A DNA stretch of 7,390 nucleotides from a virus (IMGVR_UViG_3300048926_000237:1-7390), one strand, 5' to 3'. Shown: positions 1,351 through 7,390, counted from the first letter of the stretch. A program made the numbers and translations. Notes: generated from the sequence alone by a model not told the origin.

Positions 1351-1461
1351 ATGAAGCGACCCGTTTTCCGTGGCTATAGCGATCTCGATGCATTCATCGA
1401 CGGCTTGGCCTGGTGGACTGTGATGATTGCCGCCACTGTCGCCATGATCGTCTTCCTGTAG
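1351..1461 (+). CDS. 36-aa small membrane peptide (MKRPVFRGYSDLDAFIDGLAWWTVMIAATVAMIVFL), function unknown
   Basis: Not in the ORF track (too short). ATG at 1351 is preceded by GAGGA (1340..1344) at 6-nt spacing and lies 10 nt after the zot stop. Basic N-terminus plus one C-terminal TM helix. Confidence 0.45.
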   Translation: MKRPVFRGYSDLDAFIDGLAWWTVMIAATVAMIVFL

Positions 1462-1494
1462 GCTTCGCATAATGATCAGGGATTCATGGTTAAT
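1462..1494. other. dif-like sequence (candidate XerC-arm / attP)
   Basis: GCTTCGCATAATG (1462..1474) matches the XerC-arm side of gammaproteobacterial dif (recalled as GATTCGCATAATG... in Pseudomonas) at 12 of 13 positions. TCATGGTTAAT (1484..1494) loosely resembles the XerD arm TTATGTTAAAT (8/11) but sits 5 bp too far away. Confidence 0.3.
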
Positions 1495-1546
1495 GGCGTC
1501 CGGAAAATCGTCCCGATCCGGGCGTCATTGACCCATAATCCCCGTT

Positions 1547-1777
1547 ATGCGAACGCCCCTCGACATCCCCACGCACCTTGTGAAAGACGCCGCCCTTTAC
1601 GCGCCTTCTCGCGATCCTCTCGATGCTGTTTGCCACGTCCTGCAGGACTACCCTAGGTTGGTTTCCGAGGTGCGCGAGCTGCGCCGCCGTGTAACCGACT
1701 TGGACGGCGAGGGCGCCGAGCTGGACGACCTTCTTGCCAGGCTTCAGCACGTTGCCAGGCAGATTCTCGACCTCTGA
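1547..1777 (+). CDS. Small ribbon-helix-helix-like protein with helical/coiled-coil tail (76 aa)
   Basis: N-terminus MRTPLDIPTHLVKDAA follows the MRTxLDIdddLlxeA pattern of VapB/DUF2191-type RHH proteins. The C-terminal half is heptad-like (VSEVRELRRRVTDLD...LLARLQHVARQILDL). No SD is visible, and CATAAT (1534..1539) ends 7 nt before the ATG, so the mRNA may be leaderless. It is on the same strand as the other phage genes. Confidence 0.5.
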   Translation: MRTPLDIPTHLVKDAALYAPSRDPLDAVCHVLQDYPRLVSEVRELRRRVTDLDGEGAELDDLLARLQHVARQILDL

Positions 1778-1779
1778 TT

Positions 1780-1966
1780 TGTTAGCACGCGGATCTCCTG
1801 CAGGATCTGACCAGGTTGAATTCTGTTAGCACCCCGCCTGTGGAGCTGTTAGCAGAATTCGCCCCGGGAAGTCCTCGAGCTGGAATCTTCTGTTAGCATT
1901 CCTATCGATAGAAGTGCTAACATAATGCTCCGCGGCGCCAACCAGGTGATCGCTTTTTTGTTAGCA
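1780..1966. repeat. Array of six TGTTAGCA octamers (five direct, one inverted): candidate iterons/operators
   Basis: Exact TGTTAGCA at 1780, 1824, 1847, 1891 and 1959, and its reverse complement TGCTAACA at 1915. Start-to-start spacings are 44, 23, 44, 24, 44 bp. Confidence 0.85.
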
Positions 1967-1975
1967 GGGGAAGCT

Positions 1976-2239
1976 ATGCCAACCATCATGATTCGCCACG
2001 CAACAGACGATCAGCTTCGCGAGGCCATGCGCCTGACTGGTCACACCACTGCGTCCAAGGCCCTCGTTGACTGCGTGGCCATCGCCAGCAAGAAGACTGA
2101 CGAATCCTCTCGCTTGCGTCAGGAGGTCTACGTGCTCAAGCAAGAACTGGCCTTTTCCCAGCAGGTTATTCGCCGTGCCAAGGACTCTGCAGCCGCGCTT
2201 CTCGATCACGTTGCCCAGGGCGACTTGCTCAACGGATAG
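1976..2239 (+). CDS. VapB/DUF2191-like ribbon-helix-helix DNA-binding protein with long helical tail (87 aa)
   Basis: TIMIRHATDDQLREAMRLTGHTTASKALVDCV matches the beta-strand/DDxLxxEAMxLTG/helix signature of VapB-type RHH antitoxins. The tail SSRLRQEVYVLKQELAFSQQVIRRAK is coiled-coil-like. ATG 1976 follows AGGGGAAG. The track start at 1925 would place an octamer repeat and a -10-like box inside the gene. Confidence 0.7.
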   Translation: MPTIMIRHATDDQLREAMRLTGHTTASKALVDCVAIASKKTDESSRLRQEVYVLKQELAFSQQVIRRAKDSAAALLDHVAQGDLLNG

Positions 2240-2354
2240 TGCCCAGCTCTCAAGCTGACCACTCCACGCTGATCACTCGCTTTTGCTCGTGTTGGCACGC
2301 TCTTTCATCCCGCGAGGCGATCCACTCGCACATTTGCGATGGGCCGGAACGGGC

Positions 2355-2376
2355 CAGGGGCGAAGCCCTGCTTTTT
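2355..2376 (+). terminator. Short GC-rich hairpin followed by T5 (candidate terminator for the 1976..2239 gene)
   Basis: CAGGG (2355..2359) pairs with CCCTG (2366..2370), followed by CTTTTT (2371..2376). Confidence 0.4.
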
Positions 2377-2400
2377 GAGCGCTCGACGGCGCCCGGAGGG

Positions 2401-2427
2401 GTGGGGGTGCTGTTACACCCCCACTTT
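2401..2427 (+). terminator. Perfect 9-bp GC-rich hairpin plus TTT (terminator and/or ssDNA structural signal)
   Basis: GTGGGGGTG (2401..2409), loop CTGTTA, CACCCCCAC (2416..2424), then TTT. Confidence 0.5.
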
Positions 2428-2428
2428 G

Positions 2429-2448
2429 GTATGGACTTCCATACTTTT
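2429..2448 (+). terminator. 7-bp palindromic hairpin plus TTTT
   Basis: GTATGGA (2429..2435), CT, TCCATAC (2438..2444), then TTTT (2445..2448). It lies immediately 3' of the convergent repressor gene. Confidence 0.4.
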
Positions 2449-2453
2449 GCTGC

Positions 2454-2834
2454 TCAACCCTGCTTCAGCAGCTCCCTGTTCTGGTGCTGCATGATCAGAG
2501 CTCTGATTACCTCTTTCGTGGTCTCTCTTTCCTGGCCCTTAAGCTTTCTAAGCTGTTGAAATAAAAGGCTTAAATCTCCATCCGGGCCTAGCTCTTCCTC
2601 GTCGAACAGCAGCTGGTCTGCTGTACACCCCAGCGCTATCACTACTGCCTTGACCTTCGACACGCCTGTGTCGCCTATACCGGCTTCCATTCTTTGGATC
2701 GCTTTCAGGTTGAGGCTTGCCAGCACTGCAAGCTGGCCCTGTGACAGGCCGGCCGCCTCTCTGAGCTTTCGCATGTTCTCGCCGAGGGTCATTTCTGTCG
2801 TGCTCTTGGGACGTTCATAGGCCAATTTGACCAT
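2454..2834 (-). CDS. XRE / Cro-C1 family helix-turn-helix transcriptional repressor (126 aa), likely the phage immunity repressor
   Basis: LGENMRKLREAAGLSQGQLAVLASLNLKAIQRMEAG is a typical HTH_XRE motif. It is the only minus-strand gene and is divergent from rep. Start chosen at ATG 2834 (MVKLAYERP) because AAGGAG lies 8 nt upstream on the minus strand. The track start at 2864 would contain that RBS. Confidence 0.9.
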   Translation of the reverse strand: MVKLAYERPKSTTEMTLGENMRKLREAAGLSQGQLAVLASLNLKAIQRMEAGIGDTGVSKVKAVVIALGCTADQLLFDEEELGPDGDLSLLFQQLRKLKGQERETTKEVIRALIMQHQNRELLKQG

Positions 2835-2873
2835 GTTTTTCACTCCTTCTGTCTCAACCGCCAATCACCTTGG

Positions 2874-2927
2874 GACAAATATGTCTTGACCGGGACAAAT
2901 TCGTCCTTATGATGCGACGCATATGTC
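2874..2927. promoter_or_regulatory. Three pseudo-palindromic 12-bp operator-like sites in the repressor/rep divergent region
   Basis: GACAAATATGTC (2874..2885), GACAAATTCGTC (2894..2905) and GACGCATATGTC (2916..2927). Half sites are GACA/TGTC-like and starts are spaced 20 and 22 bp apart. The first two are embedded in the direct repeat GGGACAAAT. Confidence 0.5.
2886..2913 (+). promoter_or_regulatory. Sigma70-type promoter for rep
   Basis: TTGACC (2886..2891), 16-bp spacer, TATGAT (2908..2913), about 40 nt upstream of the rep ATG. Operator-like site 2 fills the spacer and site 3 covers the predicted start point. Confidence 0.55.
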
Positions 2928-2953
2928 TCATCATCTGACCACGGATGTCCTGA

Positions 2954-4084
2954 ATGTTCATTGATTGGCTCACTGTCTCGCAGGAACACCCGTTCGACCT
3001 TCCGGTCGTCTGCGACGTGTTCACGCTGACCATCGACGCCAATACCGATGAGGTGCTCAGCACCCGGCAGCCACGCTTCAAGCATGAGGCCAGTCATTCG
3101 ACCTCGATCACCATCCATGTCCAGGGGCGCAAAGTTCGCGTCGAGGGCAACCCAAGCAGAGTAGGGCGCCTTGATAACCTCTTCGGGTTTACCACCATCG
3201 AACAATGCATTGCCGTCTACAACGCGATCCTGCGCGAATACGGCCTTCCGGGTTTCACCCGTTGCACTGGCTCTGACCTGCGCCAGGGTCAGTCGGGCGG
3301 CTCGGCTGGCGATTGGATCGGTGACGGCGCCAAGATCGAACGTATCGATCTGACAACCAATGTCACGGTTGGCGAGGGCAACGTCCTTGCCTACCTGCGC
3401 GGCGTTTCCAGCCAGCGCCTGGGCCATTCCATCGGCTTCCTCTACCCCAACGGTCGTACCGTCAGCTGGACCCCCAAGGGCAACGGCAAAGGCGGTCGCC
3501 TGCAGTATCGCAAGGCCTACGACAAGACCTTCGAACTCGACGCCAACCTGCTGCCACGCATGAAGCGCCTGTATGGCGATGAATCCCCCGAATTTCAGTA
3601 CGCCCAGCGCGTACGCGACTACTGCGCCCAGCACGGCGTTGTTCGCATGGAACAAGAGCTGAAAAACGAATACCTCCAGCGGCACCACCTTGCGTGGTGG
3701 GGGCTATTCGACGAACGCCGCTTCGGTGAATTGCACGGTGAATTTCTGAGAGTAGATGAGCGATTACAGGTGACTGCGATGGACATGATGACGATAGCTG
3801 AGAAGCTCCTAGAGACCGGTGTTGTAGCCAGTCGACAGGCTGCAAATTCCACGGCATCCGCCGCGATTCTCTGGATGCACGGCCACCAGTTCGACTTCTC
3901 CAAGTCGCAAGCCAAGGTCAACGCCGCCCGCTTGAATCAGATCGGCATCAACATCCGCAACGCCTGCGATACCAGCCGCTTTGCGCCTGTGTTCGTTCGC
4001 CAGTGCCGCGAAATCACCAAGTCCAACGTCCTGGCCATCCCGAGCTGGTACCAGCGCGCGAACCACCTGCAGGTGGCTGCATGA
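2954..4084 (+). CDS. Rolling-circle replication initiation protein, gII/Phage_CRI-like
   Basis: Several blocks line up by eye with Ff gene II protein. These are MFIDWLTV (Ff MIDMLVL), GNPSRVGRLDNLFGFTT (Ff ASPAKVLQGHNVFGTTD), IERIDLTTN (Ff ISRIDATFS) and VRMEQELKNEYL (Ff VRFEARIKTRYL). It sits upstream of the ssDNA-binding gene as in Ff. Confidence 0.93.
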   Translation: MFIDWLTVSQEHPFDLPVVCDVFTLTIDANTDEVLSTRQPRFKHEASHSTSITIHVQGRKVRVEGNPSRVGRLDNLFGFTTIEQCIAVYNAILREYGLPGFTRCTGSDLRQGQSGGSAGDWIGDGAKIERIDLTTNVTVGEGNVLAYLRGVSSQRLGHSIGFLYPNGRTVSWTPKGNGKGGRLQYRKAYDKTFELDANLLPRMKRLYGDESPEFQYAQRVRDYCAQHGVVRMEQELKNEYLQRHHLAWWGLFDERRFGELHGEFLRVDERLQVTAMDMMTIAEKLLETGVVASRQAANSTASAAILWMHGHQFDFSKSQAKVNAARLNQIGINIRNACDTSRFAPVFVRQCREITKSNVLAIPSWYQRANHLQVAA

Positions 4085-4355: not shown

Positions 4356-4627
4356 AAACAGTGAGCTTCCAGGGAACCCAACTGACTGCTGGCCAACGCC
4401 GCCAGCTGGAACAACGCCAACAGGCCAAGCCCGCATTTTTGGCGCCGCACCTCCAGCAGATGCTGGACGACAGCGCCCGCGAAATTGCCCGCATGAAAGA
4501 GCAGGGCGCCCAGGGTGAAAACCCGAACAAGTTCAAGCTCGAATATCAGACCAAGGGCACGCCCTGGCTCGGTGACGTGTTTGGATTTGCAACTTACGAA
4601 ACCGAGGAAAGTAACCATGCCATTTAA
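4352..4627 (+). CDS. Hypothetical Gln/Glu-rich protein (about 88-91 aa; start uncertain)
   Basis: Track ORF 4304..4627 starts at a GTG inside the previous gene. A TTG at 4352 overlaps the previous stop (TTGA). Other in-frame candidates are GTG 4361 and ATG 4460. The 3' end overlaps the gV-like start by 11 nt. Confidence 0.5.
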   Translation: MKTVSFQGTQLTAGQRRQLEQRQQAKPAFLAPHLQQMLDDSAREIARMKEQGAQGENPNKFKLEYQTKGTPWLGDVFGFATYETEESNHAI

Positions 4628-4907
4628 CGTACGCATCAAAATCACTTCGACTGATGTTGAGGAAAAGTCCGGCACAAATGCCCGCGGCCCGTGGAAGATC
4701 GTCGAGCAGGAAGCGTATATGTTCAAGTCCGGTGACGAGTTCCCGGAAAAGATTGTTCTCGCCCTGGATAACAACTCCCCGGCCTATGAGCCCGGCATGT
4801 ATGAACTCGACGAAAAATCCATCTACGTCGGCAAGTTCAAGCAGCCACAACTGCGTATGCGTCTCCGCCCACTAGCCGCCGTCGCCCAACAGCAAAAGGT
4901 CAGCTAA
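4617..4907 (+). CDS. gV-like ssDNA-binding protein (96 aa)
   Basis: ATG 4617 is preceded by GAGGAAAG. The size, position before the coat gene and sequence pattern (MPFNVRIKITSTDVEEKSGTNARGPWKIVEQEAYMF...FPEKIVLALD...PGMYELD) resemble the Pf3 ssDNA-binding protein as recalled (MNIQITFTDSVRQGTSAKGNPYTFQEGFLHL...). Confidence 0.8.
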   Translation: MPFNVRIKITSTDVEEKSGTNARGPWKIVEQEAYMFKSGDEFPEKIVLALDNNSPAYEPGMYELDEKSIYVGKFKQPQLRMRLRPLAAVAQQQKVS

Positions 4908-5488: not shown

Positions 5489-7003
5489 ATGGGGAACTTA
5501 CTATGTACCTTAACCCGGAAGATGTGGTCTTTCTCGGCGTGCTGTTTGCTCTTGGGCTTCTTTGCACAGGGCGCTAGTGCTGATGCCTATTATTGGAAGT
5601 TCCGAGATAACGCACCGCACCCCAGCCCACGCGCTGCCTGTAAAGTCGAAGCGGATAAACTTATTAGCGATGGCGGCAAATTCATAGCTGGTACTATTAA
5701 ATCTGTCACCCTCCTTGCTGATGACTATGCTGAGTGTATTGTTACCGCTCCCCGTGAATATGGTGGCGGCGATTTCAAATATACAATTATTCGCGGCGGA
5801 ACTTACTGTGAACCCCCATCCGTTTATAACTCCCAAACTGGCTCATGTGACACACCCGTAAGCAAGTGCGAGGAAAAGACCGGCAAAGAAACCGGTTTTC
5901 AGACTTCCGCTAAAGACTTGCTCTGGGAAGCCTGTATATCCGGATGCGCAGTTGCCGTTACCGGAATCCCCACTGTCAGCCAGCCGAAAACCTTTGGCCC
6001 AATGTTCGCTTACCACACTGGCATTTTTACCGGCGAGGAGTGCCCCCAGGACACGCCAGGTGCTGACACCGAACCACCCCCGCCAGCACCTACAGAAGAC
6101 GAAGAAGAGCAGGACTGCGGCCCAACAGAGCGCGTTGAGGACGCAGAGGGCAGGATTCACCTCATCAACAAGTGCACCACTACCACCACCAATCGCGACA
6201 ACCAGGGCTGTGCTGCCAGGGGCGGCTCGATTGGCACCATCAAGGGCGTCCAAGCCTGCATTGAGCAGCAGAAAGGCCCCAAAACGACAGAAACCAAGAA
6301 GGAAGAAACCAAGACCGAGACCAAGAATCCGGACGGCAGCAAGAAGAACGAAAACACCACAACCACCACCAAAACCGAGTGCAAGGGCGGTGTCTGCACC
6401 ACGACCACTACCACCACTAACAACAGCACCAAAACCAACGCTGACGGCTCTCCTGGCGGTTCATCGTCCAACTGCAAGGGTGATAAGTGCCCAGGTACTG
6501 GCACTGGCGGCAACGGTGGTGGCGGTGGTGGATCGTCCGGCAACGGCGACCAGGGCGACGAAGAAACCCCCAAATCAAGCGTAGGCGGGGAGGCGTGTGA
6601 TGCTGCAGTCACCTGCACCGGTGATGCCGTCCAGTGCGCCATTCTCCGTCAGCAGAAAACCGCCCAGTGCGATGCCGCCAAGTTTCGCGAGGTCACCCCG
6701 AAGAAAGAGGCTGAACTCAAGACCAGCATCGAGACTGAGTTTTCCGGCGAGAAGTATTCGCCCATCAAGGCCGACGCTGACAGCACTTTCACCCTTGACG
6801 GAATGATCGACACCAGCAGCCGCTTTTCCAAGGTTTGCCCGGCCATCCCCGAATTCTCGTTCCCGTCCATCGACGGTCAGTCCATCAGCGTTTCCATGAC
6901 CTGGGTCGCCGACTGGTGCCAGTACCTGGTCTGGATCGGCTACCTGATTGTCGCCTTTGGCATGCGCCGCGCTGCCGAAATCATCGCAGGAGGTATGAAC
7001 TAA
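5489..7003 (+). CDS. gIII-like adsorption / minor coat protein (504 aa)
   Basis: GGAGA RBS at 5476..5480. Signal peptide ends ...LLLGFFAQGASA before DAYYW. Cys-containing N-terminal domains are separated by Pro-rich (EPPPPAPTEDEEE), Thr/Lys-rich and Gly-rich (GGNGGGGGGSSGNG) linkers. The C-terminal block CTGDAVQCAILRQQ...C is followed by the membrane anchor YLVWIGYLIVAFGM, resembling TspB-type/pIII C-terminal domains. An alternative start is ATG 5522. Confidence 0.85.
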   Translation: MGNLLCTLTRKMWSFSACCLLLGFFAQGASADAYYWKFRDNAPHPSPRAACKVEADKLISDGGKFIAGTIKSVTLLADDYAECIVTAPREYGGGDFKYTIIRGGTYCEPPSVYNSQTGSCDTPVSKCEEKTGKETGFQTSAKDLLWEACISGCAVAVTGIPTVSQPKTFGPMFAYHTGIFTGEECPQDTPGADTEPPPPAPTEDEEEQDCGPTERVEDAEGRIHLINKCTTTTTNRDNQGCAARGGSIGTIKGVQACIEQQKGPKTTETKKEETKTETKNPDGSKKNENTTTTTKTECKGGVCTTTTTTTNNSTKTNADGSPGGSSSNCKGDKCPGTGTGGNGGGGGGSSGNGDQGDEETPKSSVGGEACDAAVTCTGDAVQCAILRQQKTAQCDAAKFREVTPKKEAELKTSIETEFSGEKYSPIKADADSTFTLDGMIDTSSRFSKVCPAIPEFSFPSIDGQSISVSMTWVADWCQYLVWIGYLIVAFGMRRAAEIIAGGMN

Positions 7004-7311
7004 TGCCCGCAATCATCGGCTTGTTTCTCCGCGCTCTTGCCTGGGCGCTCCCTGGTCTCGGCTGGAGCCTGCTCAAGGGCCTCGGCTTCGGTGCAGTCAC
7101 CTTTACCGGCGTATCCCTCGCCATGGATCAGGCCAAGGGCTACGTCTTCTCCAGCCTCGGCGCGTTGCCCACTGCCTGGCTCCAGTTGCTCGGCGTCCTG
7201 CAGATCGACGTGTATTTCAACATCCTGTTTTCCGCCTACGTTGCCCGCGCTGTGCTGTGGGGCATGAACAAAAGCGGCTCCAAATCCAGCATGCGCTGGC
7301 TCGGCAAGTAA
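7003..7311 (+). CDS. pVI-like minor coat / DUF2523-like membrane protein (102 aa)
   Basis: The ATG overlaps the pIII-like stop (TAATG, 7001..7005). The protein is multi-TM and hydrophobic (MPAIIGLFLRALAWALPGLGW...). It lies between the adsorption protein and zot, as in Pf-type phages. The track ORF start at 6835 lies inside the previous gene. Confidence 0.85.
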   Translation: MPAIIGLFLRALAWALPGLGWSLLKGLGFGAVTFTGVSLAMDQAKGYVFSSLGALPTAWLQLLGVLQIDVYFNILFSAYVARAVLWGMNKSGSKSSMRWLGK

Positions 7312-7390
7312 GAGGCTTACCCCATGCTGATCATTCGTACCGGCCTGCCAGGTGCAGGCAAGACCCTCAACGCCATTCGCGAAATCGACC
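7264..7390. repeat. Terminal redundancy, copy 2 (identical to 1..127)
   Basis: Same comparison. It contains the 3' end of the pVI-like gene, a GAGG RBS and the first 67 nt of the zot-like gene. Confidence 0.98.
7324..7390 (+). CDS. zot: 5' fragment of the zot-like gene (duplicate of 61..127; window overrun)
   Basis: Identical to 61..127 and part of the terminal overlap. Confidence 0.9.
   Translation, partial: MLIIRTGLPGAGKTLNAIREID

Follow-up and report, generated by a model that had tools for sequence, protein, structure and literature searches.

Small ribbon-helix-helix (RHH) proteins that act on repeated operators are well known. MetJ, with its 8-bp metboxes, Arc, and Mnt of P22 are small RHH dimers that set one β-ribbon on each short, near-palindromic box, bind cooperatively to repeats, and regulate at or near their own genes; Mnt has a C-terminal coiled coil for tetramerization. 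Omega (pSM19035), ParR on parC (R1 and pSK41), and ParG on parH (TP228) are RHH proteins on arrays of short repeats, and the omega repeats, which function in either orientation and are found upstream of its own operon and at other loci, serve regulation plus maintenance. Here, we analyzed a viral DNA of 7,390 nucleotides (nt), IMGVR_UViG_3300048926_000237:1-7390 (the window), in which six copies of one octamer form an array (1780-1966) directly upstream of the gene for an 87-amino acid (aa) protein (1976-2239, + strand). We put at about 65% the probability that the six octamers are cognate binding sites of this protein, a predicted RHH dimer with a second helix of ∼60 residues, and the array is probably an operator through which the protein would regulate its own gene. 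The protein family is uncharacterized and lacks a Pfam or NCBIfam model, and the literature searched contained no description of the family or of this array.

The resemblance of this system to both groups of RHH proteins is functional. The 87-aa protein is similar to MetJ, Arc, and Mnt in size and in its predicted order of structural elements; however, their boxes are contiguous or 8-11 bp apart, whereas those described here are 44 bp apart, with 22-34 bp between modules, the C-terminal helix extends over ∼60 residues, and there is no significant sequence or fold match. Like omega, ParR, and ParG, the present family is associated with several clusters of sites, in this case in a conjugative element, but the phage is without a cognate ParA or ParM, its repeats are non-contiguous, and the octamer is unrelated to the repeats of those systems. 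An RHH operator array is an ordinary component; what is unusual is the strict adherence to 44 bp and the way in which specificity changes in modular fashion. Open reading frame (ORF) 13 of the Pf3-like Pseudomonas phage PMBT54 encodes a small omega-like RHH protein that, as its authors propose, may help to maintain the episome or control its copy number (PMC10534721); that phage is of a different lineage, and PMC10534721 gives no repeat array. MADS-domain “floral quartets” and designed coiled-coil looping peptides (PMC10178880 and PMC3783159) are dimers on two short boxes that are joined by coiled coils and depend on helical phase, which is an analogy only, as these proteins are eukaryotic or artificial, unrelated to the present family, and form DNA loops of at least 60 bp.

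The octamer TGTTAGCA occurs at 1780, 1824, 1847, 1891, and 1959 on the + strand and at 1915 on the − strand, and an exact-string search of both strands found no other copy in the 7390 bases of the window, in agreement with a prior sequence-only reading of this DNA. The number of copies expected from dinucleotide-preserving shuffles is 0.16, none of 200 shuffles attained six, and the three additional matches obtained when one mismatch was allowed (2290, 3640, and 6061) are scattered and within the level of chance. The start-to-start spacings were recomputed as 44, 23, 44, 24, and 44 bp, identical to those in the prior reading. Module 1 consists of O1 (1780-1787, +), which begins 2 nt past the stop codon of a gene for a 76-aa protein, and O2 (1824-1831, +), 44 bp from O1 and preceded by a conserved ACCAGGTTGAATTC. 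Module 2 consists of O3 (1847-1854, +), 23 bp from O2, and O4 (1891-1898, +), 44 bp from O3. The promoter-proximal module starts with the inverted copy O5 (1915-1922, − strand; TGCTAACA on the + strand) and ends with O6 (1959-1966, +), 44 bp from O5, which abuts the ribosome-binding site (RBS) GGGGAAG (1967-1973) of the gene that starts with ATG at 1976.

Several finer features that had been reported for the array are also present. GAATTC at 1818 and 1855 provides mirror flanks for copies 2 and 3, and copies 4 and 5 form an inverted pair (19-nt arms, 84% complementary) around the palindrome CTATCGATAG (1902-1911), which is centered between them. Together with the T at 1923, O5 reads TGCTAACAT (1915-1923), which resembles an extended −10 element, and CATAAT (1921-1926) overlaps the 3′ end of this inverted copy. 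A near-copy of the octamer, CTGTTACAC, had been noted in a hairpin at 2401-2424; it is unrelated to the array, because relatives with TGATAGCA or GGTACCA for an octamer have an identical hairpin.

Homologs of the 87-aa protein were analyzed together with the surrounding DNA in a comparison set of 20 non-redundant loci (designated by L numbers) that contain 95 sites; a narrower alignment (A2), used in a profile scan of genome and metagenome collections, gave 2 and 3 loci. The same layout was found upstream of the homologous genes in the 20-locus set, and with the exception of a single locus, an array precedes the 87-aa-type gene throughout. Of 48 long intervals, 45 measure exactly 44 bp, two 43 bp, and one 54 bp; the short ones measure 22-24 bp in 17 cases and 32-34 bp in 7. 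Because the 44-bp interval is kept, the unit of the array is octamer-N36-octamer; the window has three such modules and most relatives have two. The short intervals vary in steps of ∼10-11 bp, about one helical turn, which points to binding on one face of the helix. In this set, the last site is found 5-30 nt before the ATG, next to the RBS. T(T/A)(T/A)T comes directly after the box that opens the proximal module (19 of 19 loci), giving TGNTANCAT, and two or three additional boxes, 44 bp apart, are present right after the gene in L001, L036, L020, L032, and L035.

Across the 95 sites, the box is TGNTANCA, in which G2, T4, A5, and C7 are invariant and T1 and A8 are present in 80 and 92% of the sites, respectively. 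Only box positions 3 and 6 vary between elements, the flanks are A/T-rich, and the sites fall into six classes. The layout in silverpheasant213 (L001, with TGATAGCA/TGCTATCA) and Pseudomonas phage 17897 (L003, with TGGTACCA) is as in the window. In a close relative (L022), a direct TGTTAGCA stands where the window has the inverted O5, with positions 3 and 6 changed as a pair and the box left intact. When related inoviruses are aligned, a comparison that the prior reading had proposed for both spacing and octamer, the spacing proves to be conserved, whereas the octamer word does not and differs between elements. The exact 44-bp interval is thus maintained across elements whose proteins are only ∼30-50% identical, in a family found in XerCD-type Pseudomonas filamentous phages (including Pseudomonas aeruginosa prophages and episomes) and in a conjugative element.

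The class of box tracks the first ∼12 residues of the 87-aa protein, its predicted RHH strand, and not the remainder of the protein, the type of replication protein (Rep), or the repressor. Proteins that start with MPTIMIRHA are found with TGTTAGCA (the window, L022, L004, L007, and L028), KTLTLRDV or ATLTLRNV with TGATAGCA (L001, L036, and L032), (V/I)QLRDF with TGGTAGCA (L024 and L029), LLTIRDL with TGCTAGCA (L033), (L/I)(I/L)IRD with TGATATCA (L025/L030 and L034), and ML(V/I)K... with TGGTACCA (>10 loci). Beyond residues 1-12, identity to the window protein is 34% for L007 and 43% for L028, although all three share an octamer; for L027 and L024, it is 59 and 49% over the same part, yet these occur with other octamers. 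When box predictions for eight contigs were fixed in writing before the contigs were fetched, the predicted box was found in five of them (P0033, P0037, P0066, P0052, and P0010).

The array accompanies the 87-aa gene and not its neighbors: it is found where the 76-aa gene is lacking, alongside Reps of both types, and in a conjugative element. The sequence-only reading had offered the array as the operator set of both flanking proteins; this view is supported for the downstream 87-aa protein, whose N-terminal strand co-varies with the box in ∼20 loci, but not for the upstream 76-aa protein, since arrays occur without its gene. One framework, TGNTANCA, yields six classes through two box positions and a handful of N-terminal residues, which makes the family a natural and compact data set for the RHH recognition code.

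The 87-aa protein is likely to belong to the RHH superfamily. The AlphaFold2 model (13 sequences, pLDDT confidence score of 90) predicts an extended segment at residues 1-10 (MPTIMIRHAT), a helix at 11-21, a turn, and a helix at 26-85. This layout corresponds in the sequence to PTIMIRHA, DDQLREAMRLTG, HTTAS, and a helix, which were compared with the RHH pattern of a strand, helix A, a G-x-S/T/N turn, and helix B. Many homologs open with canonical RHH-type strands (KTLTLRL and ALTIRNIS), and the 8-bp near-palindromic box occurs in both orientations and co-varies with this strand. The C-terminal motif, LLDHVAQGDLLNG/SAAALLDHVAQGDLL, is the most conserved part of the family, which comprises 201 clusters at 50% identity among 1.84 billion representatives, with nearly all members ∼85 aa in length, and matches phrog_8031, annotated without a function. 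Sub-threshold Pfam matches were obtained to VapB for the window protein (E = 0.058) and to FitA-like_RHH for the homolog in P0052 (E = 1.4e-4, below the family cut-off), and in a profile search of the PDB, residues 36-75 matched generic coiled coils alone. The prior description of the array as lying between two RHH genes is accordingly softened, as neither protein has a family match: for the 87-aa protein, it draws on the sequence pattern, the AlphaFold2 topology, and the sub-threshold matches, and for the 76-aa protein, on a similar predicted topology alone.

In the mechanism we propose, each TGNTANCA box would be read by one dimer through an N-terminal two-stranded ribbon, and positions 3 and 6 would carry the specificity. 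Dimers 44 bp (∼150 Å) apart would be tied through their long helices and the conserved C-terminal motif into a rigid octamer-N36-octamer module, with the long helix as a possible 44-bp ruler. Because a helix of 60 residues spans ∼90 Å and 44 bp spans ∼150 Å, the helices of neighboring dimers could overlap by ∼20 residues, the length of the conserved C-terminal segment. At 44 bp, the interval lies well under the persistence length of DNA; no free loop would form over so short a distance, and a rigid protein bridge would fit better. Cooperative binding with looping or wrapping, as suggested from the sequence at first, is retained in part: phased cooperativity is strongly suggested by the 44-bp interval and the ∼10-11-bp steps, but looping or wrapping fits less well.

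The proximal module would cover both the extended −10-like TGCTAACAT at 1915-1923 and the site that abuts the RBS (1959-1966), and the protein would therefore repress its own gene. A −10-like element at this position would place the start of transcription near 1930, with box 6 in the 5′ leader beside the RBS. The upstream modules, and in some relatives the downstream ones, would add cooperativity or act as barriers.

The spacers between the boxes are rich in palindromes. Those of 6 bp are ∼3 times more abundant in the spacers than in the rest of the genome (8 in the window compared with 2.4 expected), with similar ratios in all loci; they include CTGCAG, CTCGAG, GAATTC, CCCGGG, GCCGGC, GGCGCC, and ATCGAT, and CCWGG is several-fold enriched. 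In the window, the spacer of module 1 contains the palindrome TCCTGCAGGA (1796-1805), GATCTG, and ACCAGGT (1810-1816), and that of the proximal module contains CCGCGGCGCC (1930-1939) and ACCAGGT (1941-1947). Among the relatives, CTGCAGGATCT and CCWGGT(Y)GAAWTC are kept in the distal module across octamer classes, including that of the conjugative element (L030), GCCGGC/GGCGCC and CCWGG recur in the proximal modules, and CTATCGAT-like centers recur in the 24-bp intervals of L029, L033, and L001. An engineered polylinker (PstI/SbfI, two EcoRI, SmaI, XhoI, ClaI, SacII, and NarI sites) was considered as the source of this pattern and rejected; the enrichment recurs in many independent natural contigs and is thus not an artifact.

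A wider role can be imagined for the 87-aa family, although we regard it as speculative and on balance doubtful. The family might provide a DNA-templated “molecular ruler” in which box-bound RHH dimers are linked head-to-head through their 60-residue helices and C-terminal motifs into a rigid chain with a 44-bp repeat. Such a chain might form a new maintenance, pairing, or insulating complex in Pseudomonas inoviruses and conjugative elements, with box specificity set by a few N-terminal residues, so that independent groups arise, and with the spacer palindromes as contact points of the complex itself or of a host partner. If this is true, these groups would be comparable to incompatibility or immunity groups. 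Apart from this wider role, the family is a candidate rigid protein spacer on DNA, as well as a handle on the regulation or maintenance of the replicative form in little-studied phages.

A number of results weigh against the reading of the array as an autoregulatory operator bound by RHH dimers. Pfam and NCBIfam scans gave nothing significant for the 87-aa protein, which reached no curated RHH threshold, and a Foldseek comparison of its model with the PDB and BFVD gave no significant match (all E > 1), although the top of the lists is rich in RHH folds (MazE, NikR, ParD, AtaR, Mnt, and NikA). The AlphaFold2 model covers the monomer; the ribbon, the dimer, and the helix-helix bridge lie outside it. 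Three of the eight predictions missed the exact octamer, with TGATATCA found in P0040 and P0057 and TGCTAGCA in P0034. These boxes are new specificities, and a simple residue-to-base code (R with G6, K with G3) failed for both classes; the code is therefore not yet understood. A strict σ70 and terminator scan found no canonical promoter inside the array, so the argument for autoregulation is tentative and has the extended −10 resemblance as its one footing; a σ54 −24/−12 element around ACCWGGT was sought by eye and dismissed on account of its spacing. Because clusters are in some cases found downstream of the gene or, in L030, between convergent genes, autoregulation cannot be the whole function. 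Finally, the conserved CTGCAGGATCT, CCWGGT, GCCGGC, and CTATCGAT are superfluous to a pure ruler model and may reflect a second binding partner or a structural requirement.

The clusters outside promoters, together with their presence in a conjugative element, make a maintenance, pairing, or barrier role possible. As a rival explanation, the array could be a centromere-like or maintenance site that the RHH protein coats at phased positions, as ParR, ParG, and omega do, recruiting a host or other partner through its C-terminal motif to segregate, pair, or copy-control the replicative form and the conjugative element. We consider this unlikely as the principal function, although it could coexist with autoregulation. 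RHH proteins that bind centromeres and regulate their own synthesis are established in type Ib and type II partition, and the C-terminal motif of the 87-aa family is far more conserved than the DNA-reading N terminus, as a partner-binding surface would be. Moreover, several phages have arrays on both sides of the gene, close relatives have been assembled as 7-kb circular “plasmids” in P. aeruginosa, and L002 has a different gene block at the equivalent position. However, the phage encodes no ParA- or ParM-type nucleoside triphosphatase (NTPase), its only NTPase being Zot, and known centromeres are contiguous repeats rather than boxes 44 bp apart. A type Ib or type II partition system is not supported for the window, from which the cognate ParA/ParM NTPase is absent.

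The conjugative element provides evidence on both sides of this question. L030 is a conjugative plasmid or a contig resembling an integrative and conjugative element, and the element with TGATATCA boxes encodes a relaxase, type IV secretion genes, a coupling protein, topoisomerase III, and H-NS. Near-identical inverted repeats of ∼105 bp lie ∼10.8 kb apart at 701-796 and 11512-11606 of L030, and each of these clusters holds three TGATATCA boxes at 43-44 bp, away from promoters and between convergent genes. The two clusters bracket the relaxase, a resolvase, the RHH gene, and a par-like locus, and the homologs in this element adjoin a ParA-like locus, as a maintenance function would suggest. 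In L030, where 10265-10450 was also singled out, the RHH gene is directly followed by a run of TGAGGTTG iterons; an 86-aa ParG-like gene comes next, and after it a ParA-like gene of 203 aa whose Walker A motif is deviant. The ParA-like gene of L030 has its own small RHH-like partner and its own iterons, which argues against the centromere-like reading.

It is very unlikely that the sites are bound by another factor, such as the 76-aa protein, the XRE repressor (2454-2834), or a host protein, and that the link with the 87-aa gene is only positional. The 76-aa protein adjoins the array in the window and has a similar predicted topology (an extended N terminus, a short helix, and one helix of ∼50 residues; pLDDT 86), and spacer elements such as CCWGG, CTGCAG, and GCCGGC remain constant whatever the octamer and could be bound by a conserved or host factor. 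Against this, the 76-aa protein is highly conserved (at least 60% identity among 66 homologs, with a nearly invariant N terminus), whereas the octamers vary; arrays occur without its gene in L003, L006, L021, L023, L024, L027, and L028, and L002 has the gene without an array. A host factor would not switch specificity among phages that all seem to come from Pseudomonas.

The XRE repressor (cI/RstR-like) is not supported as the binder of the array, as arrays occur with very divergent or undetected XRE proteins and a separate set of repeats is present where the repressor and Rep genes diverge. These are three direct repeats, TGGGACAAATATGTCT, CGGGACAAATTCGTCC, and TGCGACGCATATGTCT, located 20 and 22 bp apart at 2871-2928 between the divergent XRE and Rep genes. 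They overlap TTGACC-16-TATGAT (2886-2913), the sole σ70-like promoter found in 1400-3000, and are probably the operators of the XRE repressor.

A role for the array as an accessory sequence for XerCD recombination, like those of cer or psi, with the RHH protein as an architectural factor that controls integration, is highly improbable. The candidate core site is a long imperfect hairpin at 1464-1553 (TTCGCATAAT...TTATGCGAA) whose single-stranded fold has an energy of −29.5 kcal/mol (z = −6.1). Both of its ends look like the XerC arm of a Pseudomonas dif site, and the hairpin resembles the folded single-stranded attP of CTX-type phages. In loci that lack the 76-aa gene (L003, L006, L021, L023, L024, and L028), the array starts ∼10-25 bp from this dif-like hairpin, and accessory regions of ∼180 bp beside plasmid Xer core sites are known. 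However, array and hairpin are not adjacent in the window or wherever else the 76-aa gene is present, arrays are also found downstream of the gene and in the conjugative element, where no dif-like hairpin is nearby, and a folded single-stranded attP of the CTX type offers no double-stranded accessory region during integration.

It is likewise highly improbable that the G2P-family Rep (2954-4084) binds the octamers as its iterons or within the plus-strand origin, the latter two being alternatives named in the prior reading. The array is noncoding and sits between the assembly genes and the replication module, and like plasmid iterons and the gpII origin repeats of Ff it has short direct repeats in ∼11/22-bp multiples on one side of the helix, but it is the small downstream protein, not Rep, with which its sites co-vary. 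The Reps of L001 (with TGATAGCA) and L023 (with GGTACCA) are 79% identical to that of the window, so that these three Reps occur with three octamers, whereas L004, L007, and L028 share the octamer of the window and have a Rep without BLASTP similarity to that of the window (E = 0.21). TGTTAGCA and TGGTACCA are each found with both Rep types, and TGATATCA arrays occur in the conjugative element, in whose fetched region there is no G2P Rep. Nor does the array have significant single-strand structure, as the fold of 1775-1975 has z = −1.6 and 14 of 200 shuffles fold equally well; a single-stranded origin or packaging hairpin was rejected for this reason. The prior reading took such an architecture to be undescribed for Ff or Pf origins, and the literature searched, in which none was found, is in line with this.

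The blocks that do track Rep type are located elsewhere. The hairpin at 2401-2424 has a perfect 9-bp stem (GTGGGGGTG-CTGTTA-CACCCCCAC), and its core, GGGGTGCTGTTACACCCC, is identical in L001, L003, L005, L008, L021, and L023, which have the Rep type of the window, and absent with the other Rep type; TTATCCGGGTCTTGGTGTCTGG is found in two loci of the other type only. The conserved hairpin is a candidate for the plus-strand origin/nick site or for a bidirectional terminator. A terminator-like stem with a T-run is present just upstream, at 2355-2370.

The window represents a 7263-bp circular Pseudomonas-type inovirus plus a 127-nt assembly overlap, given the exact terminal redundancy of 127 nt (1-127 = 7264-7390), and the circle junction is crossed by a g6p-like ORF and the start of zot. 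In order, it encodes a Zot-like assembly ATPase (61-1341), a 36-aa ORF (1351-1461), the 76-aa protein (1547-1777, +), the 87-aa protein, the XRE repressor (− strand), Rep, and a G5P-like single-stranded DNA-binding protein (4617-4907), with the coat and adsorption genes downstream of the latter. An Rfam scan of the window gave no match. A near-identity search among GenBank phages found no close relative of the whole genome and only partial matches in the Rep region; the GenBank phages are distant relatives only, two of which (L001 and L003) have a homolog of the 87-aa protein.

The 76-aa gene starts within the 3′ arm of the dif-like hairpin, with its ATG at 1547. Its product matches phrog_13909 and has no annotated family in Pfam, NCBIfam, or PHROGs; the nearest homolog (96%) is encoded by a 7580-bp contig from Pseudomonas sp. 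PA15(2017). The possibility that the 76-aa and 87-aa proteins are paralogs was rejected, as they have no BLASTP similarity. In L002 (phage blackswan219-1), which has no 87-aa gene, another gene block with the inverted repeat TGCTATCG...CGATAGA occupies the equivalent place (5770-6600).

A type II toxin-antitoxin module was rejected for the window, as no toxin-like ORF precedes or follows the 87-aa gene, which is followed by a noncoding region and the convergent XRE gene (no PADLOC scan of the window ORFs was made). In L034 (686-835) and L027 (2754-2885), the RHH-like gene overlaps at its stop codon with a short hydrophobic ORF (43-49 aa); the window has no evident equivalent of this ORF.

Several of the related elements are integrated or, probably, episomal. 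The ends of the dif-like hairpin also flank relatives, with 12-bp terminal repeats, TTCGCATAATGT, in L003 and prophage junctions in L012-L014 and L028, and a single contig carries L017 and L019 as tandem prophage copies. In PLSDB, three circular P. aeruginosa “plasmids” of ∼7 kb (CP138196.1, NZ_CP124661.1, and NZ_CP143905.1) have a gene for a homolog of the 87-aa protein; they are probably related filamentous phages whose episomal replicative forms were deposited as plasmids.

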